DNA of 64,000 bases. It comes from Candidatus Iainarchaeum sp. GTDB taxonomy: Archaea; Iainarchaeota; Iainarchaeia; Iainarchaeales; VGJJ01. Location: the NCBI GenBank assembly GCA_016699555.1, contig CP064981.1, positions 155,456 through 219,455 on the forward strand, read 5' to 3'. Of this stretch, positions 1-46,111 are shown piece by piece. The notes beneath the pieces are model-generated. The model was not told the DNA's origin, searched no databases, and was given only the letters and a program-made list of their open reading frames with translations. The position numbers and the translations under genes are program-made. Each line of letters opens with the position of its first letter. The stretch's first letter is position 1.

Positions 1-215
1 CGCCGACCGTAATGAACAAGGTATTGGAACCCAACTGCTCGAACTGCTTCACAACCGCGTTATTCAATCCAGCACCCAACGAAATCAGCGTCACAATCGA
101 AGCAATCCCAATCACCACTCCCAAAAGCGTGAGATAGGAACGCAGGCCCTGATGCGTCAGATTGCGCAACGCAAAACGAAACACCTCCAGCCCGATTTGA
201 GACATAGTTGAATAC
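1..215 (-). CDS. ABC transporter permease, MacB/FtsX-like, N-terminal part only (gene continues off the window edge)
   Basis: Reverse-strand translation from the ATG at 215-213 gives MSQIGLEVFRFALRNLTHQGLRSYLTLLGVVIGIASIVTLISLGAGLNN..., which resembles FtsX/MacB permease N-terminal TM1. It lies in one operon with the upstream ABC ATPase. It is not in the ORF track because there is no stop within the window. Confidence 0.55.
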
Positions 216-229
216 CTGCCGGCAGACAG

Positions 230-1465
230 CTACTTCGCCTTCCCGTTTGTAGGCTTGCGGAAGCGGAAGTACCACACGCCCACAATGATCACTATTACGG
301 CAATCACCAACGGCAAAGGAAAACCATCCCCGTTCTGTTGAGCTAACTCCGAAGGAGAGAACACGCGCACAGGAACCGTCCTCTCGACCGTCTGCTCATC
401 GCCGAACGCATTCTGGAAAACCAATGTAATCACCGCATCATGCAAACCCGGAGACGCATCCGGAGAGACCTTTCCCTCCAACGTAATCGAATCAAAATCA
501 TCCGATTCGATGGTGCCGATGAAGAAGTCTTTCTTGGACAGATCCATCCAATCCGCTTCCGCATGGACCTCTAACAGCTTCGCAGCGCCCAAGCCCGTAT
601 TGAACATGTCGATCGTGATGGCGGCCGCATTCCCCGGAGTGGGAGCCGTATCGTACTTGGAAACAGAAACCCCCAATTGCGCCTCCGCAACCACTTTCAG
701 ACCCACATAGTCGGTCGAAGCATAATTCGTCTTGTTGGAATCATAGAAAGACATCGTAATGGGAACGAAATAAGGCTTGCTCGTCGCAGAAGGATTAACC
801 AAAATAGGCAAGTGAATCATCACCATCTCGCCCGGCGACAAACGAGGCAAATAAGCGAATGCCGCACCCAATGGGAAGATATCGCGCTCCACCACTGCGC
901 CCGTGCTCGTAACCGTACGGTCTTCGCCCACCCCTATCGTCACATCTTGCGCCGTCGAACTGCCGATGTTCTTTACCTGCAGACTCAACTCCGAACTCTG
1001 ACCCACTCCCACCGAGGTAGGAGTCGAAGAGACCACCGCCAGAATGGGCTGGCGAGCAATCACATTGATCACAAACTCCAGCTTGCCGCCGGGCTTGCCG
1101 GCAGGCCCCACTTGGATCGAAACAGGATACGCGCCATCCAACGCAGCCGCATCCACTTGCACATTATATTTCACGGTAACCGTCTGGAAGCCCGGTACCG
1201 TACCCAAATCACGAACAGGGGAATCCTGCGGATCCAACGAGAAAGGGAAATCGGTCGCAGCGCCATCCCCGCGCAGCGTCAAAACAGCCTGTGCATTCGG
1301 AACAGGAAGCTGCGAAGAATTCGCGATGAAAGCCGTGATCGTCACATAACTCCCAGGCACGGCGGGAGAAGGATCGATGTTCACCGACGACACCGTCAGC
1401 GACTGCGCATGCACCGCAACGGCAAAAAACAATACACCCAAAAAAACCAACAACAGCTTATTCAT
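230..1465 (-). CDS. Secreted surface protein with N-terminal signal peptide (MNKLLLVFLGVLFFAVAVHA), beta-rich CARDB/COG1361-like repeats and a C-terminal TM anchor; ABC-transporter-associated
   Basis: Signal peptide with AxA cleavage site; C-terminal hydrophobic stretch PLPLVIAVIVIIVGVWYF followed by a basic tail. The ATG overlaps the stop of the ATPase gene (ATGA), and the gene sits between the ATPase and permease genes. Confidence 0.55.
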   Translation of the reverse strand: MNKLLLVFLGVLFFAVAVHAQSLTVSSVNIDPSPAVPGSYVTITAFIANSSQLPVPNAQAVLTLRGDGAATDFPFSLDPQDSPVRDLGTVPGFQTVTVKYNVQVDAAALDGAYPVSIQVGPAGKPGGKLEFVINVIARQPILAVVSSTPTSVGVGQSSELSLQVKNIGSSTAQDVTIGVGEDRTVTSTGAVVERDIFPLGAAFAYLPRLSPGEMVMIHLPILVNPSATSKPYFVPITMSFYDSNKTNYASTDYVGLKVVAEAQLGVSVSKYDTAPTPGNAAAITIDMFNTGLGAAKLLEVHAEADWMDLSKKDFFIGTIESDDFDSITLEGKVSPDASPGLHDAVITLVFQNAFGDEQTVERTVPVRVFSPSELAQQNGDGFPLPLVIAVIVIIVGVWYFRFRKPTNGKAK

Positions 1466-2187
1466 TTGTAATCCCCCTTCGCTTTTTCTTTCGTCTTGCG
1501 CACTTTCTCGCTCGACTGGATAAGACCATCCTTGATATGGATGATACGCTCCGCGCGCTCTGCTACGTATCTCTCATGCGTGACCATTAAAATGGTCTTG
1601 CCTTCTTTTTTGTTCAATTCATCGATCATATTCAGGATCGTCGCACCCGACTGCGAATCCAGGTTACCGGTAGGCTCATCCGCCACGATCACATCCGGAT
1701 CCGTCGCCAGCGCACGCGCGATCGCCACACGCTGGCGTTGCCCCCCGGATAGTTCGGTAGGGCGGTGGTGCAGACGATCCCCTAATCCCACACTGATCAA
1801 CGTCCTCGCCGCGATTTCCCTACGCTCCTCCTCCGAAATGCCCTGGAACCAGAGGGGCAACATCACATTCTCCAAAGCCGTCAAACGATTAATCAAATGA
1901 AAAGACTGGAAAACAAAACCAATCGTCTTCCCGCGCACATGCGCGAGCGCATTATCATCCATCTCCGAAATCTTCTTCCCATCGATCAGGATCTCCCCGC
2001 GCGTCGGACGCAATAGGCCCGAAAGCACATCCAAAAGTGTCGTCTTACCCGAACCGGAAGGACCCGTGATGGAGACGAACTCCCCGCGCTTGATCTGTAC
2101 ATCCACGCCCTTCAACACGTGCACGGGAACCTCGCCCAATTCATAGGTCTTCGTGACATTGCGCGCCTCGATTACAAAGTCAGACAT
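1462..2187 (-). CDS. ABC transporter ATP-binding protein (MacB/LolD/FtsE-like)
   Basis: Walker A GPSGSGKTT, ABC signature LSGGQRQRVAIARAL, Walker B VIVADEPTGNLD, and H-loop. The track start at 2205 is TTG; the first ATG (MSDFVIEARNV) is at 2187. Confidence 0.9.
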   Translation of the reverse strand: MSDFVIEARNVTKTYELGEVPVHVLKGVDVQIKRGEFVSITGPSGSGKTTLLDVLSGLLRPTRGEILIDGKKISEMDDNALAHVRGKTIGFVFQSFHLINRLTALENVMLPLWFQGISEEERREIAARTLISVGLGDRLHHRPTELSGGQRQRVAIARALATDPDVIVADEPTGNLDSQSGATILNMIDELNKKEGKTILMVTHERYVAERAERIIHIKDGLIQSSEKVRKTKEKAKGDYK

Positions 2188-2234
2188 ATCGGATACCCAA
2201 TACAAGAGTGATTATAAATGCACCCAGGAAACGA

Positions 2235-2429
2235 CTACTTCCGCGCCGGGATGATGATCCAGGCAAGGATGTAGGCGATAATCCCAATGCCCCAAAACAA
2301 CGAAGCAACCACCCAGATCAGGCGAATCACGACAGGGTCGACACCCAAGTATTCCGCGATGCCACCGCATACTCCACCCAACACCTTATCGGTCGAAGAA
2401 CGATACAAACGCTTGATCGGTTTAGCCAT
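2235..2429 (-). CDS. PspC-domain small membrane protein
   Basis: MAKPIKRLYRSSTDKVLGGVCGGIAEYLGVDPVVIRLIWV... is a canonical PspC motif followed by a TM helix. Confidence 0.75.
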   Translation of the reverse strand: MAKPIKRLYRSSTDKVLGGVCGGIAEYLGVDPVVIRLIWVVASLFWGIGIIAYILAWIIIPARK

Positions 2430-2481
2430 AAAGAAAAAGGCATCGGCAGAGTTTAAGAATCAGACCCTGCCAGCCAAAAAA

Positions 2482-3048
2482 TTATTCTACTTCCAAGCGC
2501 TGCGACTCGGATTTTTGTGCGGTCTTTTTAGGGATGGAAATGCGCAGCAGCCCATTCTCGAACTTTGCACGCGCCTTTGTAGTATCCACGTTATGGGGTA
2601 AGGAGTAGGAACGGTAGAATGAAGAATAGCTGCGCGAGAAAGTCGAGGCATCCTTTTCATTCCCACGCTGCTCCGCATTCTTGTGTGCGCGCACCTCCAA
2701 TACGTTCTCATTGAAATGGAGCTGAATATCTTTCTTATCCATTCCCGGCAGAGCAATCTCCGCCTTCACTTCCGTGGGAGTCTCATACAACTCCGAGCGA
2801 GAAGAAAATAACTCGCGCGAAAGAGGATAATTCGAAAAAGGGCTCATGAGCGAGCGCGAAAAGAAACTATCACCGAAAAACGCCTCGTGCATCCGATCCA
2901 TCTGCTCCTGCATGCGATGCATCTCATCCCAGACGGAAGGCACACCACCGCGCATCACGGGAAGCCGCCCCTCGTTGTGTGCGGGCACGTCGCGTAAGCG
3001 AGTGGGTTTATTGGATTTCGGTTTTGATTTTGCTTTTCCCATCAGCAT
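2482..3048 (-). CDS. Small heat shock protein, Hsp20/alpha-crystallin family
   Basis: Alpha-crystallin domain: TEVKAEIALPGMDKKDIQLHFNENVLEVRAHK...GLLRISIPK. The track start is TTG; ATGs at 3048 and 3042 are preceded by GAGGTG. Confidence 0.85.
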   Translation of the reverse strand: MLMGKAKSKPKSNKPTRLRDVPAHNEGRLPVMRGGVPSVWDEMHRMQEQMDRMHEAFFGDSFFSRSLMSPFSNYPLSRELFSSRSELYETPTEVKAEIALPGMDKKDIQLHFNENVLEVRAHKNAEQRGNEKDASTFSRSYSSFYRSYSLPHNVDTTKARAKFENGLLRISIPKKTAQKSESQRLEVE

Positions 3049-3114
3049 CACCTCAAAAACAATTGAATAATCGCTACGCAAAACGAGAATAAAAAAATGA
3101 ATGGAAAAATAGAA

Positions 3115-3188
3115 CGAGGCCGGAGGGATTTGAACCCTCGACAGTCTGCTTAAGAGGCAGATACTCTACCAGGCTGAGCTACGGCCCC
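3115..3188 (-). tRNA. tRNA-Lys (anticodon CUU)
   Basis: Reverse complement GGGGCCGTAGCTCAGCCTGGTAGAGTATCTGCCTCTTAAGCAGA...GGTTCAAATCCCTCCGGCCTCG folds as a cloverleaf. Anticodon loop is CTCTTAA. Confidence 0.85.
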
Positions 3189-3297
3189 ATTTTTGAGTAG
3201 TGGGACTACTGCGAACGTGCATTCGCAACTTCTTTTTCGAAATTGGGTGTCGCGCAAGCGATACCCATTCTCGCAGCGGCCAGCCGAAACTGGCCAA

Positions 3298-3371
3298 CGA
3301 GGCTAGTGGGATTTGAACCCACGGCACACGGATTAAAAGTCCGCTGCTCTACCAGGCTGAGCTATAGCCCC
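3298..3371 (-). tRNA. tRNA-Lys (anticodon UUU)
   Basis: Reverse complement GGGGCTATAGCTCAGCCTGGTAGAGCAGCGGACTTTTAATCCGT...GGTTCAAATCCCACTAGCC; anticodon loop is CTTTTAA. Confidence 0.85.
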
Positions 3372-3498
3372 AATCACTACGAAAAAGGCGAAGAAACGGT
3401 TAAAAAAGACCCTATTCCGGCCCAATATAGCGCGGGTGCCGCCTTTCGCGCACCCATCCCAAGAGCAGCGTTTTATTCACCAAAACAATCCCTTCCCC

Positions 3499-4733
3499 AT
3501 GGAGAAAAAATGGATTTTCTGGGGATTATGCGCTCTCCTGCTCACATTACCCCTCATCCAAGCAGCCACCTTCGCCACCACCCTCTTCGTGTGGAATGCC
3601 CCTGCCGGGACGCGAAGCTATACCCTCACCTACGGCGCCGCCTGCAATGCCAGCGCATTCTATTTCAATGAAGTCGACGCCAACTACGACCCCGACAACG
3701 ACGGAAACGCCGCACGCATCCCCCCACCGCCACGCTCGTGAGCGACAGCAACGTACTTGGAGACAGCTACAACTATGGAGGGATAAGCTCCCCTAGCGCC
3801 GGCCCGGTATACGCCTACCAACAGACCGGACTCAATAGCGACCCCTCCGACCTGAGCGAAGTCGCGACCGAATTCACATCCGATGAATACCTCAACATCG
3901 AAAACGTCGACGCAACCTATGTCGACGTCATCGAAACGGGTAGCGGCAGTTACATCGCCACCCAATACCGCATCGACTACGACCAAGACTATCGCCGCAT
4001 CAAGAAGACCACCGTCAACTATACCGGAGGCACCTTCATCAAAGTCAACGCGAACCCATGCATCAACGACACCACCGGAAACGAAGTCGATATGCGCGCT
4101 TACGCATGGAACTGGAGAACCAATGTGTTCGATCTCATCCAAACCGATAACGATAACCAAGGAGGCGGAATCAGCAGCGCCATCTTCACCCAACGCAGCA
4201 TCTCGCTCGACACCAACATCCGCGACTACGTCAATTCCGACGCAACCACCTATTTCATGCTCGCAGCAGGCCCCGTCAACACACTCGATGGATGCATGAC
4301 ACTCGACGAGCTCGATTTCGACGTCGAATATTACCCCGACACCAACGCATTCTGCCAAAGCGCAACCATCGCACCCATCACCATCACCAATGCAGGGGGA
4401 TCCAACCTCAACATCGACGGGAACTTCTCCACCGCATTCTCAGGAAACGACACCAACCTCGTACTGAAAGTATGGCAAGGAACAGGAAGCGGATGCGGAA
4501 CAGCAGGAATGGGAGGATGGGAAAAAAGACTGCAGCGTCACAAACGCACTCACCGACCTCGGAATGACCACGTGCAGACAATACAACCAAACAAACGCCA
4601 CCAGCAATGGAAGGCTCATCAGCGCGCTCTTGCCGGGAGACTCCAACCAGCTATGCTTCTCCGGCGACATCAACACCTTCACGCGCCGCGGAACCTACGT
4701 CAAGACATTCCAGATCGGCGACTACAACAGCTG
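3499..4733 (+). pseudogene. Secreted DxDxDG-motif surface protein paralog P1, interrupted by two frameshifts (about 3716-3741 and 4522-4527)
   Basis: Three ORF-track pieces (3436-3741, 3738-4769 and the tail to 4733) align colinearly with paralog P2. The shift points coincide with a C6 run (3720-3725) and an A6 run (4522-4527; P2 has A5 at the same place). Confidence 0.6.
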
Positions 4734-4774
4734 AGGCCGCGCAGTATTTTATTGCAGGATAAGCTCTGAATGGC

Positions 4775-6025
4775 ATGCACCCCTATACGCGCACCATACT
4801 CGGAATGGCGCTCCTTGCTCTGCTGATGATTCCCTTCGCCCACGCGCTGACAGGACTCTACAGCCAGACCATGACATGGAACATCCTGGCCAACCGCAGC
4901 CACAGCATCACCTACGGCGGAAGCTGCTCCGAGACCAGTTTCTATTTCAATGAAATCGACGCCAACTACGACCCCGACAACGACGGAAACGCCGCACGCA
5001 TTGCCCCAAGCTCCATCGCACGAACGCTTGGAACCACCACTGCGCAACGCGATTACAACTTTGTTGGAGTTACCGCTCCGAGCTCGACCAATATAGGGTA
5101 TCTTGGAGAGGTTGGAGTTTCCCCACCCACCACTATCGTGCCAGTAAGCACAGAATTCACGGACGATGAATACACCAATGCCATCGCAGCCGATTCAGCC
5201 GGCGTACAAACCATATCAACGGGAGGACAATACCCCTCCTTCAAAATCACATACAAGTCCGTCGTCTTGCCCGAAAAGACAACCGCTTTATCATTTCATT
5301 TCGTTGGAGTGAACATCCATAACGCTATTTGCGACGTCGAACCAACCGCGCCAGAGAGTGAAGGAATAGAGGGCGACATTAATTTCTTCCTATGGAACTT
5401 TCAAGAAAGCGAATATGAACGCATTGGACGCCACACCGGGACAGGAGTAGAAGGGACATACCCTGTCGAAAATGTTGATCAAACATACTTCGTGGATTTC
5501 AATCTCACACGATTCATCCATGCAACGGACCGCAACATTACGCTACTCATCCAAGGATCGTCGGACGCCAGTGTATTCTCATGCCTATACGGGGACATCA
5601 TCGAAATGTACCAACAATACTACTACGACAACAACGTCTTCTGCCAAAGCGCAACCATCGCGCCATTCACCATCTACAATAACGGAAACACCGACATCAA
5701 TGTCGACGGGAACTTCTCCAGCGCATTCTCAGGAAACGACACCAACCTCGTACTGAAAGTATGGCAAGGAACAGGAAGCGGATGCGGAACAGCAGGAATG
5801 GGAGGATGGGAAAAAGACTGCAGCGTCACAAACCCACAAACAGACCTAGGAACAAGCACATGCAGACAATACAACCAATCCAACGCCACCACCGCCGGAC
5901 GCCTCGTCAGCAATCTCGGAACAGGAGACTCCAACCAGCTATGCATGTCGGGAGACATCAACACCTACGTTGCAGGCGGCACCCACGCCAAAGAATTCGT
6001 CACCAATGACCGCAACGCAACATAG
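4775..6025 (+). CDS. Secreted DxDxDG-motif (putative Ca-binding) surface protein, paralog P2
   Basis: Signal peptide MHPYTRTILGMALLALLMIPFAHA. Conserved N-module TMTW..SITYGGSCS..FYFNEIDANYDPDNDGNAARI and C-module CQSATIAP..NVDGNFSSAFSGNDTNLVLKVWQGTGSGCGTAGMGGWEKDCSVT. The central region is variable. Confidence 0.7.
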   Translation: MHPYTRTILGMALLALLMIPFAHALTGLYSQTMTWNILANRSHSITYGGSCSETSFYFNEIDANYDPDNDGNAARIAPSSIARTLGTTTAQRDYNFVGVTAPSSTNIGYLGEVGVSPPTTIVPVSTEFTDDEYTNAIAADSAGVQTISTGGQYPSFKITYKSVVLPEKTTALSFHFVGVNIHNAICDVEPTAPESEGIEGDINFFLWNFQESEYERIGRHTGTGVEGTYPVENVDQTYFVDFNLTRFIHATDRNITLLIQGSSDASVFSCLYGDIIEMYQQYYYDNNVFCQSATIAPFTIYNNGNTDINVDGNFSSAFSGNDTNLVLKVWQGTGSGCGTAGMGGWEKDCSVTNPQTDLGTSTCRQYNQSNATTAGRLVSNLGTGDSNQLCMSGDINTYVAGGTHAKEFVTNDRNAT

Positions 6026-6057
6026 CGGGTTTTATTCCACTATGCGCTTCCACCCCT

Positions 6058-7311
6058 ATGCGACCGAATAATCTTGTTGTGGCGACACTATTCCTATTGC
6101 TCTGCGCCCCCCTCATCGCACACGCCGTCGAAAGCACCACCACCATGACGTGGATCATCATGCTCAATCGCGCGCACAGCATCACCTACGGCGGAAGCTG
6201 CTCGGACACCAACTTCCACTTCAAAGAAACGGACGCCAACTACGACCCGGACATCGATGGAAACGGAGCAAAAATCAAACCCAGCGCCAATCCAGGAACG
6301 AATCCACCCGCTTCAAGCACGTGGGATGAACAATTCGTCTCCTACTCCACGCCGTGCTCCAGCACAGGAAACAATTGTGCCTTCGATGTCAACCTCCAAA
6401 CATCACTCCCAACCTCAGCAGCAACTCATAATGCGGAGTTCGTGAGCACACAATACGACAACCTCGATCCGGTAGACGGCGCGGATGCCAACACCATTGC
6501 GAGCGTATCGGGAAGATTTCCCGCGCAAAAATTCGTATTCAAACTCGCAGGGAATGTCCACCCCCAACGCATTATTGACTTCAACTTCAGCTACCAAGGA
6601 TCGGCCATCGCAATGTCGAATGCAATCACCTGCGCCGATGGAGCGGGAACGGATCGGGACATGAATTTCTATATCTACAATTACACCAACTCCCAGTATG
6701 ACCTCGTCCTACAACGCACGGGGACAGGAGCAGCATATAGTGGAAACGCCCCTCGGGACGCCAATGCATACATGAGCATCAATCACTACACCCTCAGCGA
6801 TTACGTTGGAGTCGCACCCGACAACAACATCACATTCCTCGTACGAGGGGTCGATAACACTAGCACTGGCCGCTTCTCATGCGTCATCACGGACCGCATC
6901 GCACTGGCCTATCACACATACACCGAATCCACCTACTGTCAATCCTCCACCGTAGCACCCATGCGCATACGCAACGTCGGAAATACAGCCATCAACATTG
7001 ATGGAAACTTTAGCAGCGCATTCAGCGGAGTGGACACGAATATCGTATTGAAAGTATGGAGGGGAACCCCATTCTGCGGCAATACGGGATTCGGAGGGTG
7101 GGAAAAAGACTGCAGCGTCACGAGCACCACGATAGCGCCCGGCACCACTACCTGCAAGCAATTCAACCGATTCAACGCCACCACGTCCAGCAGACTTATA
7201 TCCAGCATTGCAGTAGATGGGAACGGCAGCCTCTGCTTCTCCGGAGACCTCAACGGGTTCGTTGGAGCAGGCAACCACGTCAAGACATTTCAAACCGGAA
7301 GCGGAGTATAG
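6058..7311 (+). CDS. Secreted DxDxDG-motif surface protein, paralog P3
   Basis: Signal peptide MRPNNLVVATLFLLLCAPLIAHA. Same N- and C-terminal modules as P2 around a different central insert. Confidence 0.7.
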   Translation: MRPNNLVVATLFLLLCAPLIAHAVESTTTMTWIIMLNRAHSITYGGSCSDTNFHFKETDANYDPDIDGNGAKIKPSANPGTNPPASSTWDEQFVSYSTPCSSTGNNCAFDVNLQTSLPTSAATHNAEFVSTQYDNLDPVDGADANTIASVSGRFPAQKFVFKLAGNVHPQRIIDFNFSYQGSAIAMSNAITCADGAGTDRDMNFYIYNYTNSQYDLVLQRTGTGAAYSGNAPRDANAYMSINHYTLSDYVGVAPDNNITFLVRGVDNTSTGRFSCVITDRIALAYHTYTESTYCQSSTVAPMRIRNVGNTAINIDGNFSSAFSGVDTNIVLKVWRGTPFCGNTGFGGWEKDCSVTSTTIAPGTTTCKQFNRFNATTSSRLISSIAVDGNGSLCFSGDLNGFVGAGNHVKTFQTGSGV

Positions 7312-9317: not shown

Positions 9318-9440
9318 CGCACATTCTTGGACAGGCACACAGTTAAAAGGAAATTGGAGCTGAAGAGTAGAACGGCAAGAATGACCGAATAAACACAAAA
9401 TATTCGTTCATTTTTTCACGTTAACTTCTAATCCAATCCT

Positions 9441-9515
9441 AGCGGGACGGGGCAGTCTGGAGTGCCCGTCGGGCTCATAACCCGAAGATCGAAGGTTCAA
9501 ATCCTTCTCCCGCTA
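9441..9515 (+). tRNA. tRNA-Met (CAU), initiator type (A1:U72, three G:C pairs in the anticodon stem)
   Basis: AGCGGGACGGGGCAGTCTGGAGTGCCCGTCGGGCTCATAACCCGAAGATCGAAGGTTCAAATCCTTCTCCCGCTA folds as a cloverleaf. Anticodon loop is CTCATAA. Confidence 0.85.
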
Positions 9516-9756
9516 TCTCTCTTTTTCAATACTTTTTGTAATCCCAAACAAAAACCCTTCAAAATACTCACTCACTTTATCATATACAGTGACTTTTTGT
9601 GCAGTTTTGATCATTTTTTCACCCTCATTCTTGGTTTTTTAGATCAAATTTCAGTAATTATTAACAGTTTATTATTTTATTCACTTTATTTGATATGTTG
9701 CATATTTTGAACCAATACTCAACTCAATTTTTAACGACTAAATATTAACAACCCGA

Positions 9757-9853
9757 GTAATTACTGTATTTATTGAGTAATTACTGCAAGTTTTGGTAAT
9801 TACTAGTAATTACCATAAGGTTTTTAAGTAATTACTATCATTACTATCATTAC
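9757..9853. repeat. Array of five palindromic GTAATTAC sites plus two ATTAC half-sites, phased at about 10 and 20 bp, immediately upstream of and overlapping the start of ORF 9855
   Basis: GTAATTAC occurs at 9757, 9777, 9796, 9806 and 9828, followed by (c)ATTAC tATC ATTAC C ATG. Confidence 0.7.
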
Positions 9854-9854
9854 C

Positions 9855-10331
9855 ATGTTGAAACTGATCGTTAGAAGCATCTTTTCCGGGGTCGATCGAC
9901 TCAAACAGTGGGTTGAGTACACTCCCAGAAATGAGAGCACTAACACAGAATCAATAAATCACAGAACAATTAGAATTAGTGAACAGAATGCCACAAAATC
10001 GCCTCCGCGCTTCAAAGTAGTGAATCTGTGGGACCACCTGAAGTTTAGGGAAGGAACCCAGGCACACCATGTGACACAGGCGCTTGATTTTGAGGAATGG
10101 ACGCCAATGGAAGAAATACTGCGTCGCGTGAAAGAGTTATTTGGAATTGAATACCAGAATGAAAGAAGCCTATACCCTTACTTGAAGACCCTTGTAGATA
10201 GCGGACTTCTTGAGTCTAGTGTAGTAGGCGGAAAAATGAGATGGAAGAAGAAAGGACTATTGATCAGCGTAGAAGAATTAGATAGAGAAATAGAGGCACA
10301 ACAAACAACCCCTATTTCACAACCCCTTTAG
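9855..10331 (+). CDS. Hypothetical protein of the integrated element, possible C-terminal winged-helix
   Basis: ATG start. C-terminal segment EEILRRVKELFGIEYQNERSLYPYLKTLVDSGLLES looks wHTH-like. Low GC. Confidence 0.45.
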   Translation: MLKLIVRSIFSGVDRLKQWVEYTPRNESTNTESINHRTIRISEQNATKSPPRFKVVNLWDHLKFREGTQAHHVTQALDFEEWTPMEEILRRVKELFGIEYQNERSLYPYLKTLVDSGLLESSVVGGKMRWKKKGLLISVEELDREIEAQQTTPISQPL

Positions 10332-11645: not shown

Positions 11646-12572
11646 TTAGAGATTATCAAGTGGACTCTGAACTTTCCTCAATTCTTCTTTGGAGACGTGC
11701 GTGTAGATTGATGTGGTTGCTAGGTTTGCGTGTCCTAACAGAATCTGGATCTTGCGAATATTCTCTCCGTTGTCTAGCAGGTGGGTGGCGAATGAATGTC
11801 TGAGCACGTGGGGGGTGACTCTTTTCATAATTTTTGCGCGTTCGGCCGAGTGACGCATGACGCGTTCAACGGTATCAGTAGAGATGGGTTTTCCATTTTT
11901 TTTGGCAAACAAAAACTCGCTTTTGGTTTTCCTACGATTGAGGTATTTTTTCATTTCTCCCATCCATTTCTGTGATAAGACGATTTCACGGTCTTTGTTT
12001 CCTTTTCCGCCTTGCACGCGCGCCATTCCTGCATTGAAGTCGATGTCTTGGAGTTTGATTTTGACTGCTTCTGAAACACGGACGCCGGTGGAATAGAGAA
12101 ACATCACGAGCAAACGGTTTCTTCCGGGTTTGGTGTTTTTGATGAGCGATTTGATCTCTTCAATCGTCAATACGCTGGGTAATTTTTTGGCTTTTTTGGG
12201 AATACGGACTTCGTCCATGACTTTCATTTGGAGATGTTTCTCGAGGAAGAACTTAATGGATGCATGCATGAGGGCCAGCGTGGCATTGGAGACATTTTTT
12301 TCTTTTGCACTAGCGAGGAATGCGACGATTTCTGGTTTTCCCACTTCGTGCGGCTTCTTCCGCAGTTGTTGCAAAAATTTTTCGACGTAGAGCAAGTACA
12401 TCTTTATCGTTTTTTCTGAATAACCCGAAATCAGTAATTCTTGACGAAACCCATTCATGATTTGTTCGATATCATTTTTGGGCAAAAAAGGATTTGAGAC
12501 ATCTGCAGGTGTATCAATCTGAATACGCGGGACAATCGGGGTGTTTGTGTCCAGCTGAAAATTCTCTTCCAT
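11646..12572 (-). CDS. Tyrosine recombinase/integrase, XerC/XerD(XerA)-like
   Basis: N-terminal SAM-like core-binding domain (LISGYSEKTIKMYLLYVEKFL). Catalytic motifs R..(VRVSEA), HVLRHSFATHLL, LLGHANLATTSIYTHV. GC is about 44%. Confidence 0.9.
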   Translation of the reverse strand: MEENFQLDTNTPIVPRIQIDTPADVSNPFLPKNDIEQIMNGFRQELLISGYSEKTIKMYLLYVEKFLQQLRKKPHEVGKPEIVAFLASAKEKNVSNATLALMHASIKFFLEKHLQMKVMDEVRIPKKAKKLPSVLTIEEIKSLIKNTKPGRNRLLVMFLYSTGVRVSEAVKIKLQDIDFNAGMARVQGGKGNKDREIVLSQKWMGEMKKYLNRRKTKSEFLFAKKNGKPISTDTVERVMRHSAERAKIMKRVTPHVLRHSFATHLLDNGENIRKIQILLGHANLATTSIYTHVSKEELRKVQSPLDNL

Positions 12573-39352: not shown

Positions 39353-39988
39353 ATGCGACTGCTAAATGTGTTTGCTATCTGCGGATTGGCTCTATTGGTC
39401 ATGGCGACGTTTGCCTCGGCGAATGTCGTTACGACGACGATGACATGGTTCGTTGCTTCATCGAAGTCCATCAGTGTCGCGTATGGTTCTCCTTGTACGT
39501 CGAGCGCATTCATCTTCAATGAGACGAATGCCATCTACGATCCCGATAGCGACGGGAATGCTGCCCGCGTCGTGCCTCAAGCCACGCGTGTTGGGCCGGG
39601 CGACAGCAATTGCCAGTCCTCTTCGCAAGCTGCGATTACCGTTACGAGCGCAGGAACGGCTAGCACGAATGTCGATGCTAACTTTGCCGCCGCATTCTCG
39701 GGTGCGGATGTCAACATCGTTTTGAAAGTCTGGCAAGGGAGCAGCGGATGCGGGACTGCGGGATTAGGCGGATGGGAGAAGGACTGTACCGTAACAGGCA
39801 CTACGAGCGCCCCCAACACCACGACGTGTAAGAACTTCAATTCCAGCAATGCTATTGCGGGTTCGCGTGTCATTACGAGTTTGGCCGTGTTTTCATCCAC
39901 GCAGCTATGCTTTTCGGGAGACTTCAACACCTACGTCGGTGCAGGAGATCACAACGCGAGCTTCCAGCTCGGGTCCGAATTCAGTTAA
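39353..39988 (+). CDS. Short paralog (P4) of the secreted DxDxDG-motif family, with the N- and C-modules fused and no variable insert
   Basis: MRLLNVFAICGLALLVMATFASA + TMTW..SVAYGSPCTSSAFIFNETNAIYDPDSDGNAARV + CQSSSQAAITV..NVDANFAAAFSGADVNIVLKVWQGSSGCGTAGLGGWEKDCTVT. Confidence 0.65.
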   Translation: MRLLNVFAICGLALLVMATFASANVVTTTMTWFVASSKSISVAYGSPCTSSAFIFNETNAIYDPDSDGNAARVVPQATRVGPGDSNCQSSSQAAITVTSAGTASTNVDANFAAAFSGADVNIVLKVWQGSSGCGTAGLGGWEKDCTVTGTTSAPNTTTCKNFNSSNAIAGSRVITSLAVFSSTQLCFSGDFNTYVGAGDHNASFQLGSEFS

Positions 39989-41243: not shown

Positions 41244-43202
41244 ATGCGACTCGCATTGGGCATAGGGGTCATTTTCCTTTTCTTCATGTGCCTTGCCCCC
41301 GGCATCACCGCGAATGCGCCGACCAGCAATATCACCTGGCGCCCCGCTCTTGACACGGCATATTTTCTGGATTTGAGTTATGCGATTTGCCCTACTTCCA
41401 CGGGAAATTCCACTATCCAAGCGACCGTCGCGGGAGAAAGCGGTGCATCGGTCGTGGATGCGAACGTTTTCGCGACCATCCGAAAACCCGATCTCTCTAC
41501 GACGGATGTGAATTTCACCAACAATCTCTCGGGGACCTACTCCTATACATACGACTTCGACCAGAATGGAACGTATCTCATCCAGGCGCACGCATACAAA
41601 CCCGGCATCACGCCCGGGGATGCCAACGCCTATGTGTATCTCGGCAATTTGGATTTCGATATCATTTTCCTCAACAACAATTTCTCGATCGCTGTTGGCG
41701 CGCTCGGGACGATCCAGAATATCGTGTACAATTCCGATGGCAATATCGTGTATGACATCAACGCCAACACCTCAATCCTGCTGAATGGAACGGTCGTGGA
41801 TGCCAATCGTGCGATGGCACAGGCGGCGAATGGGGAATTCTCCTACAATTTCTTCGGTCCCTCTCCCGCTGGCACGTACACGGTCACTACCGTCACCCAG
41901 TGCGGGAACCGTTATGATTCCAACACCTCGGGGGGATTCACCACTACCTCGGCTTCGACCGGGGGCACAGGCGGAACGGGATCAACGGGCGGGGGCTCGA
42001 CTGGAGGCGGAGGAGGAGGCGGCGGGGGTGGCGGTGGCGGTAGCTCTCGGCGTGCACAGATCATCGACATCTCATTCGATCCTGCGCCTGCGCGCAACAT
42101 GTCATCACAATTGAGCACGACGCTCCTCAATCTCACTACCGGGATCAATGACTACGTGCTCGAATACCAGGTCACGCTTCCTTCAGGCGCCATTGTGGTG
42201 GGTGAACGTGCGGCGCTTGCAGTTGCACCTTATTTGCCCAGCACATTCGTGTTGGAGGATTCCTACATTCCGACGGAGCTGGGGGTAATCATCGTGGACG
42301 TTTGGGCTAAATCCCCCAACAAGCGGACGACTTATGCCACGCTCCGGCGCACGTTTGATGTCACGGGGACGCACCTCATCAATGTCGATGTGGCAACGCC
42401 TTCGACGAAGAGCGCGCAAGGGTTGTCATTCCCCTTCACGATCAACCTTGCCAATGAAGGGGATTTCGACGAGGCGAATGTCGAGGTGTCATGGCACATC
42501 ATGGATCCCAACGACACGCCCTACAGCCAGTCCACACTCACGACGACCATCAACAAAGGGGATTCGGTTTCCTTCCCCTACAGCGCGTTCATCCCACTCA
42601 ATGCGGTGTTGGGACTGCATGCCTTGGAGGTCGAGATTACCGCCTATGGCCAAACCCAGAAGCGCGAGGTGATGTTCGAGGTATCTTCGCCGAATGACTA
42701 TTATGCCCAAGTCATCGCTGACCTGGAATTGCGCGCCGATCAGCTCGAAGAAAAACTCAAGGACTTGCAACAGCGCGGATTCGATGTCTCGGATGAAACG
42801 AGTATGCTGCTGGACATCCAGACCGACTTAGCGCGTGCAAAAGGAACCTTTCTCGCAGGAAAATTCGAGAACCTGAACACGCAACTGCTGAAAATCTCCG
42901 AGGATCTGACAAAACTGGCTTCGATGATCGACCTCATCGGGCAACAAGCGCCCCTGCTCTCGAGAGACGGTCTGATCATCATCGGTTATGCCGCGGGAGT
43001 GTTGCTGCTGATTGCGTTGGCCTACCTCTTATGGAAGAAGCTCCGCGAACACGCCGTGCCCAAGAGCCCACTGCTGACGCCCTATCCCCGCTTGCCATGG
43101 TTCATGCGCTTCATGCGATTGGAGAAATGCTATATCCCCATACGTGAACGCAAAAAACAAAAAAGAAAGGCTTTAATATCCCGACTTCTTGGGTTGGAGT
43201 AG
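41244..43202 (+). CDS. Large surface protein with signal peptide, CARDB-like beta domains, a poly-Gly/Thr linker and a C-terminal TM anchor
   Basis: MRLALGIGVIFLFFMCLAPGITANA. STGGTGGTGSTGGGSTGGGGGGGGGGGGGS. C-terminal LIIIGYAAGVLLLIALAYLLWKKLRE. The track start is TTG; the ATG is at 41244. Confidence 0.6.
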   Translation: MRLALGIGVIFLFFMCLAPGITANAPTSNITWRPALDTAYFLDLSYAICPTSTGNSTIQATVAGESGASVVDANVFATIRKPDLSTTDVNFTNNLSGTYSYTYDFDQNGTYLIQAHAYKPGITPGDANAYVYLGNLDFDIIFLNNNFSIAVGALGTIQNIVYNSDGNIVYDINANTSILLNGTVVDANRAMAQAANGEFSYNFFGPSPAGTYTVTTVTQCGNRYDSNTSGGFTTTSASTGGTGGTGSTGGGSTGGGGGGGGGGGGGSSRRAQIIDISFDPAPARNMSSQLSTTLLNLTTGINDYVLEYQVTLPSGAIVVGERAALAVAPYLPSTFVLEDSYIPTELGVIIVDVWAKSPNKRTTYATLRRTFDVTGTHLINVDVATPSTKSAQGLSFPFTINLANEGDFDEANVEVSWHIMDPNDTPYSQSTLTTTINKGDSVSFPYSAFIPLNAVLGLHALEVEITAYGQTQKREVMFEVSSPNDYYAQVIADLELRADQLEEKLKDLQQRGFDVSDETSMLLDIQTDLARAKGTFLAGKFENLNTQLLKISEDLTKLASMIDLIGQQAPLLSRDGLIIIGYAAGVLLLIALAYLLWKKLREHAVPKSPLLTPYPRLPWFMRFMRLEKCYIPIRERKKQKRKALISRLLGLE

Positions 43203-43212
43203 TGGTGAGACT

Positions 43213-43488
43213 ATGGTGAGCTCCGAAATGATTGTTTCATTGGGATTATTTGTCGTCCAGCTGGCAGTGGCTGTCTATCTGATCCGCTACTCCAACCAGC
43301 AGCTGATGACCAGCGTCTCCGGATTGCGCGACAAGAATCTGGAATTGATGAAATTGAACGCACGCCTCACCAAAACCATGATATCGAACGAGAATGCCAT
43401 CCGCAAGGAACTGGATCAGTTGCGCGGAAGCGTCGGAAGCAAATCTTCCACCGAACAAGTCGTCGCCGTGCCTGCGAAGAAGGCATGA
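43213..43488 (+). CDS. Small single-pass membrane coiled-coil protein (tandem paralog 1)
   Basis: MVSSEMIVSLGLFVVQLAVAVYLIRYSNQQ + coiled coil. Paralogous to the next gene. Confidence 0.5.
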   Translation: MVSSEMIVSLGLFVVQLAVAVYLIRYSNQQLMTSVSGLRDKNLELMKLNARLTKTMISNENAIRKELDQLRGSVGSKSSTEQVVAVPAKKA

Positions 43489-43515
43489 TTCCACTTACGC
43501 TGGAGAAAGATTCCC

Positions 43516-43770
43516 ATGATCGGCTCTGAACTCATCGTCACGGTTGGCTTATTCGTCATCTCTCTCTTAGTGGCCGTTTATCTCATCCGTTACTCCAACC
43601 AACAAGTCGCGAGCTGCCTGACCACGCTCGAGAAACAACACAATGAATTGGTGGACTTGAACGGGAAACTCGCCAAGGAAATCCTCTCCATGGACAAGAA
43701 GATCCGCAGCGAGATCGATGTGGCGCGCTCCCATCTCATGACGCACAAGAAAAAGAAAGCCAGCGCATAA
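43516..43770 (+). CDS. Small single-pass membrane coiled-coil protein (tandem paralog 2)
   Basis: MIGSELIVTVGLFVISLLVAVYLIRYSNQQ + coiled coil. Confidence 0.5.
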   Translation: MIGSELIVTVGLFVISLLVAVYLIRYSNQQVASCLTTLEKQHNELVDLNGKLAKEILSMDKKIRSEIDVARSHLMTHKKKKASA

Positions 43771-43816: not shown

Positions 43817-44293
43817 ATGTCTCAAGCTGAAGCCACGCGCATTCAACATCTCTTGAAAGAAAAGAATATCCCATTCGAGCACATGGTGCACGCGCCCGTG
43901 TATACTTCCGAGCAAGCCATGCAGGCACGCAAGGGAGAATTGCACAATGGGGTAAAGGCCATGGTGTTGGAAACAGAACGCGGGATCGTTCTCGCGTTGC
44001 TGGCGGCCGACCTGAAAATGGATTTGGATGCGTTCGCAAAACTAATGGAATTCAAAAAAGTCAAACTCGCGAGCAAAGAAAAAGTATTGGAGTGCACGGG
44101 CTGCGAGCCGGGCTCCGTTCCCCCATTCGGGTTCGAACCGCCCCTTCCAACGTACCTCGATGAGACCATTTTCGACCATGAGTGGGCGGAATTCAATATC
44201 GGACTGTTAACGGAAAGCATCAAGATGAAAACAAGCGATTTACGCTTGGTTTTACCGCAACGACTGCTGAAATTCGCGAAGAAGATGCAATAA
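43817..44293 (+). CDS. YbaK/ProX-family aminoacyl-tRNA deacylase (Cys-tRNA(Pro)/Ala-tRNA(Pro) editing)
   Basis: YbaK-domain pattern including TGCEPGSVPPFGF and NGVKAMVLE. Confidence 0.75.
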   Translation: MSQAEATRIQHLLKEKNIPFEHMVHAPVYTSEQAMQARKGELHNGVKAMVLETERGIVLALLAADLKMDLDAFAKLMEFKKVKLASKEKVLECTGCEPGSVPPFGFEPPLPTYLDETIFDHEWAEFNIGLLTESIKMKTSDLRLVLPQRLLKFAKKMQ

Positions 44294-44310
44294 AACCCCG
44301 TAAATCCCAG

Positions 44311-44545
44311 CGAAAGGAGTTATCGGGTACTCTTTGGAGTATCCGTTCTCGTACCGCACAGCCGAAACTGTGCATCGGCCTTTGATAAAGGCCGGCGAAA
44401 GGAGTTATCGGGTACTCTTTGGAGTACCCGTTCTCGTACCGCACAGCCGAAACTGTGCATCGGCCTTTGATAAAGGCCGGCGAAAGGAGTTATCGGGTAC
44501 TCTTTGGAGTACCCGTTCTCGTACCGCACAGCCGAAACTGTGCAT
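44311..44545. repeat. Tandem repeat: 2.75 copies of an 85-bp unit, each with three hairpins; ends in TTTTTT
   Basis: Units start at 44311, 44396 and 44481 (the last truncated at 65 nt), with one mismatch between copy 1 and 2. Hairpins: cgggtactc-tttg-gagtacccg, gcacag-ccgaaa-ctgtgc, ccggccttt-gat-aaaggccgg. Confidence 0.85.
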
Positions 44546-44634
44546 TTATAAGCCTTTTTTAGGGGTTCTTGGGTTATAGTGGCTCAAAAGCCGCCAATGA
44601 AAGCTTCCTTTGGAAGTTTTGAGGTGAAAAGAAT

Positions 44635-45502: not shown

Positions 45503-45997
45503 ATGATGGAACGAAGCCTTGTTTTGATCAAACCCGATGGCGTACAACGCGCACTAATCGGACGCATTCTGCAACGATTTGAAGATGCGGGAATCAAACC
45601 CATTGGGATGAAAATGGTCCATGTGGACAAGAAATTCGCCGCCGAACACTACTTTGACGTGGGTCAACGCCGCGGAGAAAAAGTATTGGAATACAACGCC
45701 AATTTCTTGAGCGAAGGACCTGTCGTCGCGCTCGTGTTGGAAGGGATCAACTGCATCGAATCCATCCGCAAAATGGTGGGAAGCACGGAACCAAAGGCTG
45801 CCGCTCCCGGCACTATCCGCGGAGACTTCGCCCACCAAAGCTACGCGTGGTGCGACTCCAATGACATGGTGGTACGCAACTTGATCCACGCCTCTTCCTC
45901 TACCGAAGACGCGCAGAAAGAAATCGCATTGTGGTTCACTCCCAAGGAAATCCATTCTTACAAGAATGTCCACGAAATGCACACGTTCGGAAAGTAG
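45503..45997 (+). CDS. ndk: Nucleoside diphosphate kinase
   Basis: ERSLVLIKPDGVQRALIGRILQRFEDAGIKPIGMKM...GTIRGDFA...RNLIHASSS. Confidence 0.9.
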   Translation: MMERSLVLIKPDGVQRALIGRILQRFEDAGIKPIGMKMVHVDKKFAAEHYFDVGQRRGEKVLEYNANFLSEGPVVALVLEGINCIESIRKMVGSTEPKAAAPGTIRGDFAHQSYAWCDSNDMVVRNLIHASSSTEDAQKEIALWFTPKEIHSYKNVHEMHTFGK

Positions 45998-46111
45998 TCT
46001 GGATTACGGTAAGTAATCCTAACGCTTTTGATCAACCTTTTTGCAAAAGGTTAGTGTGCGAAATGCACACGTTCGGGAAATAGTTTTCCCGCTCTGTGTA
46101 CCATTGCTGCG

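Follow-up and report, generated by a model that had tools for sequence, protein, structure and literature searches.

The space between the YbaK/ProX-type aminoacyl-tRNA deacylase gene (43817-44293 on the + strand, with PF04073 on all homologues) and the L7Ae operon holds by far the strongest repeat of the window, as we call the whole 64,000-nucleotide stretch of DNA analysed here. Tandem Repeats Finder places it at 44310-44545, with a period of 85, 2.8 copies, 99% matches and a score of 465, and it starts 17-18 nucleotides past the YbaK stop codon (TAA, 44291-44293), which bears out the original prediction of an array of 85-bp units at this place. As also predicted, a single mismatch separates copies 1 and 2: the sole base difference inside the unit is T at 44342 versus C at 44427, and in hairpin 1 the T replaces a G-C pair by G-T. 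One unit folds with a minimum free energy of -40.7 kcal/mol (z = -5.65), and the z-scores of the entire YbaK-L7Ae spacer are -7.5 (+ strand) and -6.7 (- strand). The three hairpins proposed per unit all fold; hairpin 3, however, described as a 9-bp stem, has 8 bp (CGGCCTTT/AAAGGCCG), the preceding base being T, not C. The stems of hairpins 1 and 3 are perfect and enclose loops of 3-4 nucleotides, and hairpin 2 is bulge-free, with the loop CCGAAA.

The array resolves into three copies of one element, all on the + strand. Copy 1, the leftmost (44310-44373; match to our covariance model CM R1 of 61.0 bits, E = 1.4e-14), is truncated at its 5' end: it consists of the leader GCGAAAGGAGTTAT (44310-44323) and a 50-nucleotide core (44324-44373), without the hairpin-3 module, and carries the lone C>T change at 44342. 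The left junction of the array follows TAAATCCCA (44301-44309), a native sequence shared with the relative L119. After the dinucleotide AT (44374-44375) comes copy 2 (44376-44458; 63.7 bits, and supported by its fold), full length with 83 nucleotides and composed of the hairpin-3 module CGGCCTTTGATAAAGGCCG (44376-44394), the leader (44395-44408) and the core (44409-44458). Copy 3 (44461-44543; 63.7 bits) is also full length and repeats copy 2 exactly, with hairpin 3 at 44461-44479, the leader at 44480-44493 and the core at 44494-44543. Its hairpin-2 end adjoins the native L7Ae promoter (ATTTATAAGCC...), and the array-free relatives L120, L121, L138 and L126 have conserved the right flank (T)GCATTTATAAGCCTTTTTTAGGGG. 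The 35-nucleotide stretches between the cores are identical to one another and belong to the repeat unit; a CRISPR array, which needs unique spacers, is thereby rejected, as it had been from the start. The small open reading frames across the array are artefacts, as had equally been supposed, because a period of 85 (85 mod 3 = 1) puts each copy in another frame; a coding reading is likewise rejected.

Downstream of the array, the L7Ae promoter region (44545-44560, + strand) comprises a TATA-like TTTATAA (44545-44551) and a T6 tract (44555-44560), both conserved in array-free relatives. The T6 tract had been taken for the terminator of the array. It begins 12 nucleotides past the last hairpin, and in array-free loci it is conserved along with the L7Ae promoter downstream, so that an intrinsic or oligo-T terminator is rejected. 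The L7Ae 5' leader itself contains a K-turn-type hairpin (44594-44624, + strand) with the layout CC-AAU-GA-[stem-loop]-U-GA-GG, which overlaps the Shine-Dalgarno sequence GAGGTGA; its stem covaries in 6 relatives and is flanked by invariant ATGA and TGAGGTG. This leader K-turn is of a known type (PMC5539422, PMC6298567) and is independent of the repeat. The hairpins of the unit lack any K-turn signature (a 3-nucleotide bulge with tandem G-A pairs), hairpin 2 having no second GA. The array is absent from all 7 syntenic YbaK-L7Ae loci examined, where YbaK identity is 70-96%, and so does not count as conserved in this spacer, which contains different genes in every relative. The suggested link between the unit and L7Ae binding thus falls on both counts, and the neighbouring L7Ae gene is not regulated by the array. 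No sign of a host function emerged; where it stands, the array is probably passive and would be transcribed as the 3' tail of YbaK.

A further family member lies far from the array and is the best match of the window (3244-3295, + strand; 72.7 bits, E = 8.5e-18). It is a solo copy reduced to the core, located in the spacer between tRNA-Lys(CUU) (3114-3189, - strand) and tRNA-Lys(UUU) (3297-3372, - strand). The 12-mer CAGCCGAAACTG of hairpin 2 was already noticed at 3281-3292, and this is indeed its fourth occurrence in the window (0.27 expected; none of 100 shuffles reached 4). The homology is far wider than was thought, extending over the whole core 3244-3295, with both stems fully compensated: hairpin 1 is TGGGTGTCGC/GCGATACCCA and hairpin 2 is GGCCAG/CTGGCC. 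A hairpin is present at this place, as stated, not in the tRNA-Lys(UUU) trailer but on the strand opposite to both tRNA genes, in their spacer. Its hairpin-2 end directly adjoins the tRNA(UUU) sequence, and the relative L042 has an orthologous copy. The tRNA-Lys locus mentioned in the original prediction was the key lead to the family.

The core family is dispersed over at least 8 genomes or populations of Iainarchaeia (Diapherotrites, DPANN). With CM R1 we obtained 24 matches above 36 bits in 239 kb of sequence; 8 loci of the related MAG CAYZNV01, among the matches listed, fit a strict 18-base pattern whose calculated chance expectation is about 1e-4 per 1-Mb genome. A full element of about 83 nucleotides consists of an optional 5' module (hairpin 3 and a GCGAAA-type leader) followed by the 50-nucleotide core, in which hairpin 1 (9-11 bp), TTCTCG, about 4 nucleotides and hairpin 2 (NNNCAG-CCGAAA-CTGNNN) succeed one another. 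Hairpin 1 is free in sequence and conserved in structure, and TTCTCG and hairpin 2 form an invariant 3' module. The sequence of hairpin 1 varies even within one genome, and sub-families also occur in which several loci and genomes share a single hairpin-1 sequence. Leaders at the 5' end measure 3-54 nucleotides, with or without hairpin-3 or 'S' modules, and a homologous hairpin-3 module adjoins family members in L120, L015 and L086. Among inserts, the element is 56-98 nucleotides long. The purine-rich leader also seems to pair with TTCTCG; the register differs among copies, and we did not count this pairing as a helix.

Both stems of the core covary: 93.3% of cells are paired and 12 of the 16 pairs have changed on both sides, values that none of 500 shuffles equalled. 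Control structures in which the partner was slid by 1-3 columns had 26-43% of cells paired. On the strand that reads TTCTCG, G-U/U-G pairs outnumber A-C/C-A pairs (19 versus 7). In the window and in 11 loci, no Rfam 15 family covers the element at the gathering threshold; at E <= 10 the L31 leader alone was matched, at the level of chance (17.5 bits where the gathering score is 33; E = 2.7). A wider scan with the pattern TTCTCG N{5,9} CAGCCGAAACTG was too loose (about 87 chance matches calculated in 596 Gb) and returned at least about 100 bacterial matches, the informative ones being archaeal only; 4 matches in viral contigs are all due to chance. BLASTN against phage and plasmid collections gave no match, and a metagenome scan with a stricter pattern yielded only 2 true matches, both orthologues of L109. 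Judged by eye against their consensus features, the element fits neither hammerhead, twister, pistol or other ribozymes, nor a tRNA-like structure, group II domain V/VI, an integron attC site or the VR/TR architecture of diversity-generating retroelements (DGRs). Type III toxin-antitoxin RNA repeats are rejected, as there is no downstream toxin gene.

Is this family mobile? The 3' end of S6e provides orthologous empty and filled sites, with an insert bounded by a duplicated single-copy target. The site is empty in L142 and L143 and filled in L109 and L137, where a 56-nucleotide insert is accompanied by a 21/21-nucleotide duplication. L135 has the same element with the same hairpin-2 junction downstream of S6e and a 34/34-nucleotide duplication; by S6e identities, L109 groups with L142 and L135 falls outside the pair. 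The target junction here is AAAA followed by AAAGAAAGC, and beyond the insert S6e still has a hairpin and T-run terminator of its own. This empty-site comparison concerns the S6e site, the array's own spacer differing in gene content from relative to relative.

Significant flanking direct repeats were found for 9 of the 23 matches tested, and in all 9 the downstream duplicate begins 0-6 nucleotides after hairpin 2; about half of the copies have no flanking duplication. Apart from the two S6e cases, duplications measure about 23-45 nucleotides. The duplicated targets include the 3' end of 5S rRNA (twice, with two very different copies), the 3' ends of two different tRNAs and one other sequence that ends in a T-run, and they have no core sequence in common. 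The hairpin-2 end is joined precisely to the target; the 5' end is variable, truncated or extended, and joins inside an A- or T-run common to element and target. Copies are found between genes at sites that are not orthologous, for the most part close to the 3' end of a gene, and in both orientations. In L120, for example, L24e and NDK are each followed by a copy that is lacking in the window, L124 and L126; the spacers of the L24e-NDK and YbaK-upstream sites have diverged too far for junctions to be defined. The core is thus demonstrably a multi-copy, structurally conserved, mobile element family. Among the three options first offered for the repeat, the miniature repeat element is the one that holds, and a strand-specific role in 3'UTRs is not supported, given the occurrence of both orientations relative to the flanking genes.

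The array is a recent feature: it is missing from the 7 syntenic loci, its copy 3 repeats copy 2 without a change, and copy 1 has lost part of its 5' end. We think it probable that it consists of three head-to-tail copies of a non-autonomous, protein-less mobile element. A purely local origin, in which a single resident copy and 35 bp of flank were amplified by slippage or unequal crossing-over, is possible, on the unlikely side, and would make the array uninformative on the insertion mechanism. It agrees with units that are 99-100% identical and strictly periodic and with the slippage-prone nature of hairpin-rich DNA, and the first 9 nucleotides of the register (TAAATCCCA versus TAAAGGCCG) have 6 of 9 bases alike, a possible microhomology. 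However, the array ends on the right exactly at the hairpin-2 end of the element, its unit boundaries match element boundaries defined independently in other genomes, and the 'spacer' (hairpin 3 and GCGAAA) is a module that adjoins family members elsewhere rather than local flank. In L071 and L094, moreover, adjacent copies differ in the sequence of hairpin 1 and so clearly stem from separate insertions. A repeat both unique and absent from relatives had been equated beforehand with a local slippage duplication; the array is indeed absent from relatives, yet its unit is not unique, and it is therefore more than a plain slippage product. Against three inserted copies, the inter-unit spacer resembles the flanks weakly, and one or two inserted copies multiplied by ordinary unequal crossing-over could account for the array equally well. 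Its copy number could also be wrong, the assembly being derived from a metagenome.

By what route would such mobile copies arise? The invariant 3' module (TTCTCG and hairpin 2) may be the handle for a trans-acting enzyme. We infer that the process would start with a nick on the hairpin-2 side and the copying of a single-stranded intermediate reading TTCTCG, most likely RNA, and would resemble the way in which target-primed reverse transcription inserts a SINE. An imprecise second break, followed by joining through microhomology, would then produce a long, variable target duplication. The array may have grown through successive insertions at a single nick site directly 5' of the L7Ae TATA box, or by end-to-end template jumping in one event; either route would leave the truncated and mutated copy leftmost and an array ending exactly at hairpin 2. 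Copy-and-paste through a single-stranded intermediate, in a manner like target-primed reverse transcription, is a guess that we make with low confidence. The family does combine an exact 3' junction, a variable or truncated 5' end and duplications of variable length, as a SINE-like retroposon should. In DPANN archaea, reverse transcriptases do occur, and most of them belong to the DGR type (PMC8632793). That the hairpin-pair elements are an archaeal counterpart of SINEs, whose RNA is copied in by target-primed reverse transcription, perhaps by a DPANN reverse transcriptase, is nonetheless doubtful. The element has no poly-A tail and no recognisable internal promoter, and many copies could not serve as a source of RNA because both orientations to transcription occur. 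Further, we know of no prokaryotic retroposon with target-primed reverse transcription and target duplications. A Pfam scan of 20 unannotated window ORFs revealed no reverse transcriptase, transposase, HUH or RAYT gene. If the SINE-like reading is true, the hairpin-2 junction, 5' truncation, microhomology, 20-35-nucleotide duplications and concatemers would be signatures of the process. Its by-product would be duplicated gene 3' ends, and perhaps duplicates of entire tRNA genes (the tRNA-Lys pair around the solo copy, for instance).

Alternatively, the element could be a miniature transposon or integrating element that moves at the DNA level, driven in trans by a DNA enzyme with widely staggered cuts. 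Candidates are an IS1634-type DDE transposase, a Cas1-like casposase, or a tyrosine/Xer recombinase acting on folded single-stranded DNA, and the only recombinase among the 20 scanned ORFs of the window is a Xer-like tyrosine recombinase (11646-12572). The strand-asymmetric conservation of the hairpins would also suit a folded single-stranded DNA substrate, and the two orientations relative to transcription speak for this reading too. In addition, the choice of tRNA and protein-coding gene 3' ends as targets and the unusually long duplications recall casposons, likewise archaeal (PMC5137440). We nevertheless hold this unlikely. Five inserts, delimited by duplications or unit boundaries, show no terminal inverted repeats when their first 20 nucleotides are compared with the reverse complement of their last 20 (best local score 3-5). 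The duplication passes from 21 to 34 nucleotides at one target, whereas transposases and casposases make duplications of fixed length; the lack of a common target core speaks against site-specific recombination; and the insert has a variable 5' end and an exact 3' end.

A third possibility, which we consider rather improbable, is that of an RNA element acting in cis for the host (as a stabiliser of 3'UTRs, a terminator or an insulator, in the manner of bacterial REP/BIME), spread and kept because it protects or terminates transcripts, the array having been selected as an insulator of YbaK from the L7Ae operon. Most copies do lie just past stop codons, frequently between convergent genes, and are in the sense orientation to flanking genes at 10 of 16 loci; the hairpins are stable, with z about -5, and compensatory change maintains their structure. 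However, 6 of the 16 loci are antisense, the array and most copies are unconserved at orthologous sites even in close relatives, the hairpins are followed by no U-tract, and the terminator of S6e itself is left intact beyond the insert. Finally, a small non-coding RNA gene family, or an array of L7Ae-binding K-turn sites regulating the adjacent operon, has in its favour the proximity of L7Ae, the conserved structure and a possible TATA box mimic (TTGATAAA in hairpin 3, about 25 nucleotides upstream of hairpin 1), but is very improbable given hairpins devoid of a K-turn signature, the lack of a TATA-like module in most copies and of a terminator after the core, the absence of an Rfam match above chance level at E <= 10, and related L7Ae loci that all lack the array and conserve the separate K-turn leader.

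Returning to the mobile element as the preferred explanation, we compared the family with known systems. Like the bacterial REP/BIME and REPIN elements, which RAYT transposases mobilise, it is made of short multi-copy extragenic hairpin repeats at gene 3' ends, in which a conserved hairpin and optional modules form a mosaic, single or clustered, with lineage-particular expansion. However, REPs keep their sequence within a genome and have a GTAG or CGTC head, whereas our element is headless with a free hairpin 1, and it duplicates its target, which REPs do not. RAYTs have been described mainly from bacteria, and the 20 window ORFs contain none. With SINEs and stringent-type LINEs it shares a non-coding nature, a conserved structured 3' end with an exact 3' junction, a 5' end that is variable or truncated and joins via microhomology, long variable target duplications and possible head-to-tail concatenation by template jumping. 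SINEs, in contrast, are eukaryotic, with internal promoters and usually A-rich or repeat tails, and to our knowledge nothing comparable to SINE-like retroposons has been described in archaea.

MITEs are similarly small, non-autonomous, intergenic, multi-copy and insertion-polymorphic between relatives, but the terminal inverted repeats and short fixed target duplication that define them are missing here, with inverted-end scores of 3-5 and duplications of 21 versus 34 nucleotides at one S6e site. Casposons are large elements that end in terminal inverted repeats and duplicate a constant length of target, about 14-15 bp; an element of 56-98 nucleotides without inverted termini, and with duplications of 21-34 nucleotides or more, is not derived from them. 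PATEs, derived from IS200/IS605, and group IIC introns are also hairpin-dependent and strand-specific, with a preference for terminators or gene ends, but neither makes target duplications. PATEs also have a similar hairpin at either end and a target tetra- or pentanucleotide that is fixed, and domains V and VI, recognisable in group II introns, are absent from the element. A gene-less element with two compensated hairpins that moves between gene ends with duplications of 20-35 nucleotides appears to fit none of the standard prokaryotic classes (MITE, REP, IS, casposon or group II intron). Literature searches found no published equivalent of the family, nor any description of a comparable repeat family in DPANN archaea, whose streamlined genomes are tiny (about 1 Mb).

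If its movement is RNA-based, the element would be the first SINE-like retroposon outside eukaryotes; if not, it would still mark an uncharacterised integration activity with widely staggered cuts, of the kind from which CRISPR adaptation arose. The spaces that the element rewires lie between highly expressed genes (S6e, NDK, 5S rRNA, tRNAs and the L7Ae promoter). The element also yields spurious ORFs and breaks metagenome assemblies, two independent contigs ending inside it, and the covariance model obtained here can be used to annotate it.

The strongest repeat of the window, as detected by Tandem Repeats Finder, spans positions 44310-44545, with a period of 85, 2.8 copies, 99% matches and a score of 465, so that the tandem repeat of the original prediction is real. 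A YbaK/ProX-type deacylase gene (43817-44293, assigned from PF04073 on all homologues) lies upstream, its stop codon 17-18 nt before the start of the repeat, and the L7Ae-S28e-L24e-NDK gene row begins just past the end of the repeat. A 5'-truncated copy with leader and core (44310-44373) is followed by two full, identical copies of 83 nt with hairpin 3, leader and core (44376-44458 and 44461-44543), each preceded by AT. The one mismatch reported between copies 1 and 2 is T 44342 versus C 44427, the sole change within the unit, producing a G-T pair in hairpin 1. The three hairpins described for each unit all form, except that the stem of hairpin 3 has 8 bp and not 9; hairpin 1 is CGGGTACTC-TTTG-GAGTACCCG and hairpin 2 GCACAG-CCGAAA-CTGTGC. 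Folding gave -40.7 kcal/mol for a single unit (z = -5.65), and z-scores of -7.5 (+ strand) and -6.7 (- strand) for the complete YbaK-L7Ae spacer.

The left junction of the array follows TAAATCCCA (to 44309), a sequence common to the related locus L119, and the right junction, (T)GCATTTATAAGCCTTTTTTAGGGG, is common to loci L120, L121, L138 and L126. The last hairpin 2 directly abuts the L7Ae promoter. Since the right flank is shared with these four relatives, it is this promoter and not the array that includes the TATA-like box (44545-44551) and the T6 tract (44555-44560), contrary to the earlier reading of the T6 tract as the array's terminator. The array was also rejected as a YbaK terminator.

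Two tRNA-Lys genes are separated by a fourth, diverged copy (3244-3295), which lies on the strand opposite to theirs. The 12-mer hairpin core already noticed there is conserved, and with it the entire architecture: hairpin 1 (TGGGTGTCGC-GCAA-GCGATACCCA), TTCTCG as in the array, and hairpin 2 (GGCCAG-CCGAAA-CTGGCC). Relative to the array, the stems of both hairpins are fully compensated. We scanned 185,579 species genomes with the pattern TTCTCG N{5,9} CAGCCGAAACTG. Among the matches listed, about 100 were scattered over bacteria, where about 87 are calculated by chance, while the archaeal MAGs CAYZNV01, DAOQRN01 and CAZVVW01 had at least eight, one and two loci, respectively; all archaeal matches listed present a hairpin of variable sequence immediately upstream of TTCTCG. 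The first of these MAGs, CAYZNV01, is related to the source genome: window positions 1-5000 are syntenic with it, at about 78% nucleotide identity.

A covariance model, R1, was built from 14 copies. It produced 24 matches above 36 bits in 239 kb (window and related loci), and no copy beyond the four in the window with filters off; a later search added one further copy, cut by a contig end (L140/L141). In the R1 alignment, 93.3% of cells are paired, both sides have changed in 12 of 16 pairs and 84 cells carry double changes; none of 500 shuffles attained the observed values. When the pairing partner is shifted by 1-3 columns, only 26-43% of cells pair. On the TTCTCG strand, G-U/U-G pairs outnumber A-C/C-A pairs (19 versus 7); the hairpins are thus maintained on the strand reading TTCTCG, as RNA or single-stranded DNA.

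The hairpin-3/GCGAAA module is not local flank: homologues of it stand before family members in L120 and, as degenerate versions, in L015 and L086. Copies in L099, L094, L042 and L140 have an alternative 5' module, AAAAGTAGGCNCCCAGTCAAAAGAAAAAAGA. As copies carry differing 5' modules, the family is a mosaic, and it appears to combine several of them. A longer recurrent intergenic module was also observed (L094 2255-2350, L099 60-111, L042 1745-1850), with a T-run/A-run palindrome (for example CTTTTTCTCTTTT-CC-AAAAGAGAAAAAG), GTAGGCNCCCAGTCAAAAGAAAAAAGA and a hairpin-1-like stem, in this order; some instances have no hairpin 2.

What kind of element is this? A CRISPR array is rejected, as originally stated, because the stretches between cores are identical. 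A coding sequence is rejected as well: 85 is no multiple of 3, each copy is read in another frame and the ORFs crossing the array are artefacts, as had been supposed. No Rfam family matches the array, even at E <= 10, and searches of viral contigs and of phage and plasmid records did not turn up the element. The suggested link with L7Ae does not hold either, since the array contains no K-turn and is missing from related L7Ae loci.

At the YbaK-L7Ae locus the array is not conserved. It is absent from seven related loci that retain YbaK beside L7Ae, with no model match between the two genes. Their spacers contain a + strand ORF cut by the contig end in L119 (YbaK identity 96%; the contig stops before L7Ae), a 279-aa ORF in L120 (87%), a minus-strand 96-aa ORF in L138 (85%), a minus-strand ORF of at least 191 aa in L139 (81%; the contig ends), two minus-strand genes in L121 (80%), a 292-aa ORF in L124 (74%) and a called 88-aa ORF in L126 (70%). 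Across these loci and the window, the spacer is a hot spot of gene turnover; its 279-292-aa ORFs have no Pfam domain. Directly upstream of YbaK (43189-43770), two adjacent small paralogous genes of 99 and 84 aa, 71% identical over 89 nt, each encode a protein whose N-terminus is hydrophobic and whose tail is predicted to be coiled-coil-like; this pair is kept in related loci.

Among the options first put forward, the miniature repeat element is the right one: we very probably face a dispersed mobile family, of whose copies the array is made. The copies that L120 carries after L24e, after NDK and upstream of YbaK have no counterpart at these sites in the window, L124 or L126, and L121 has one upstream of YbaK. 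One hairpin-1 variant, CAGGTATTGCA..GCAATACCTG, occurs at unrelated loci of different genomes (L086, L094, L120). Two independent contigs terminate inside the element, and assembly breaks are a typical effect of repeats. A significant flanking direct repeat was found for 9 of 23 tested matches, its downstream copy beginning 0-6 nt past hairpin 2. Among the duplicated targets, a 5S rRNA gene (Rfam 5S, L094 2410-2526) was struck at its 3' end on two occasions, by copies that differ greatly, and two distinct tRNAs (L052, L070) were likewise struck at their 3' ends. The other targets are a 31-nt stretch with a T-run at its end (L099), and the final codons and stop codon of ribosomal protein S6e (L109); the ninth case involves the tRNA-Lys genes flanking the solo copy and its orthologue (L042).

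The S6e site was found both empty and filled. In L142 it reads ...AAAGAAAGCAAGACACTAAAA|TAATACTTTGAGAG..., then a terminator hairpin and T-run, and it is also empty in L143. In L109 and the independently assembled L137 we found the same 21 nt as in L142, then ACAAA, the 51-nt core, the 21 nt repeated and TAATTTATTGAGAG.... L135 has the same element with an identical hairpin-2 junction and a longer A-rich leader; the S6e end of L135, itself diverged, is perfectly duplicated over 34 nt on either side of the insert. S6e nucleotide identities (L109-L142 90.5%, L109-L135 88.2%, L135-L142 86.5%, each about 74% with L143) group L109 with L142, leaving L135 outside, which implies either that the element inserted twice, independently, at one junction or that it inserted once and was then precisely lost. 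A host function as a structured 3'UTR element or terminator, also envisaged originally, is conceivable but lacks support: positions of the element are not conserved, it is antisense at 6 of 16 loci, and S6e retains its own terminator downstream of the insert. Nor is a small ncRNA family supported.

The element has no terminal inverted repeats. Its hairpin-2 end is exact, with one target position used at S6e in apparently two separate events, and its 5' end is variable (core alone, or core plus 3-54 nt of leader or modules). In every case the 5' junction is within an A-run or T-run that the insert has at its start and the duplicated target at its end, and it looks like a microhomology join. Duplications vary in length (21 versus 34 nt at S6e, up to about 45 nt elsewhere) and the different targets have no sequence in common, which excludes site-specific recombination at a common core. 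The combined junction and duplication features, with no terminal inverted repeats, exclude a classical MITE. Casposon-like elements, which have a fixed duplication and inverted termini, are excluded, as are the IS200/IS605 and IS91 mechanisms, which involve no target duplication.

In target-primed reverse transcription, the first nick and the 3' junction are exact and the second break is imprecise, with 5' truncation and 5' microhomology; among the mechanisms known to us, the features of the element are characteristic of this one. Stringent LINE reverse transcriptases recognize the 3' stem-loop of their SINE partners, a role that the invariant 3' module might play here. The array could then grow by repeated use of one nick site or by end-to-end template jumping, and either route would place full-length copies beside the 3' junction and put the truncated unit, which is older or was copied last, at the left extremity. 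The observed order matches, with full copies at right and the truncated unit leftmost; growth by ordinary unequal crossing-over is a fair alternative. Approximately half of the copies have no duplication, copies lie in both orientations relative to genes, and a scan of 20 window ORFs for a partner enzyme returned only a Xer-like recombinase. We know of no target-primed retroposon of this type in prokaryotes. DPANN archaea are known to carry reverse transcriptases, for the most part of the DGR type (PMC8632793). An RNA or target-primed mechanism specifically seems to us rather unlikely. The mobile family is a new variant among small non-autonomous prokaryotic repeats, with an unusual insertion signature.

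The tRNA-Lys CUU/UUU genes (window 3113-3372, L042 1503-1752) are 79% identical over 77 nt, including a 4-nt common trailer, and flank the solo element as target duplications do at other sites; the pair may possibly have been born of an element-associated duplication. At 45973-46084, the final 26 nt of the NDK gene, stop codon included, are duplicated 86 nt downstream with two differences, both synonymous. Between the two stretches lies a 60-nt insert containing a pair of hairpins, GGATTAC-GGTAA-GTAATCC and AACCTTTT-TG-CAAAAGGTT. This target/hairpin pair/target architecture is that of the element family, without TTCTCG and CCGAAA, and is unscored by the model. A true family member directly follows the NDK stop codon in L120, and nothing is present there in L124 and L126.

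The Xer-like tyrosine recombinase gene (11646-12572; Phage_integrase, E 5e-48, and SAM-like N-terminal domains) lies about 2 kb beyond an AT-rich stretch that follows a tRNA-Met gene (9440-9517) and includes three short tandem repeats (9668-9690, 9755-9804 and 9831-9853; whole region 9440-9860). Possible readings are an integration site, a dif or origin region, or unrelated features. Three paralogous genes in tandem, each about 1.28 kb long (3586-7300; 343-417 aa, segments 67-96% identical), with a fourth related paralogue about 32 kb away (39666-39936), encode, at a guess, surface proteins. In L070, two tRNA genes of about 122-129 nt (4456-4577, with an intron-like insert, and 3890-4018) are detected by Rfam and missed by ARAGORN; the MAG is labeled Methanosarcinales, yet the two loci have 31% and 36% G+C, and this label may be doubtful.

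The 5' leader of L7Ae itself (44594-44624) contains a K-turn-type hairpin, CC-(A/C)AU-GA-[stem-loop]-U-GA-GG, also present in L120, L121, L124, L126 and L138. Its stem covaries in six relatives, and the closing GG falls in the Shine-Dalgarno sequence GAGGUGA. This hairpin, observed here in DPANN archaea, matches the L7Ae autoregulatory leader described previously (PMC5539422, PMC6298567).
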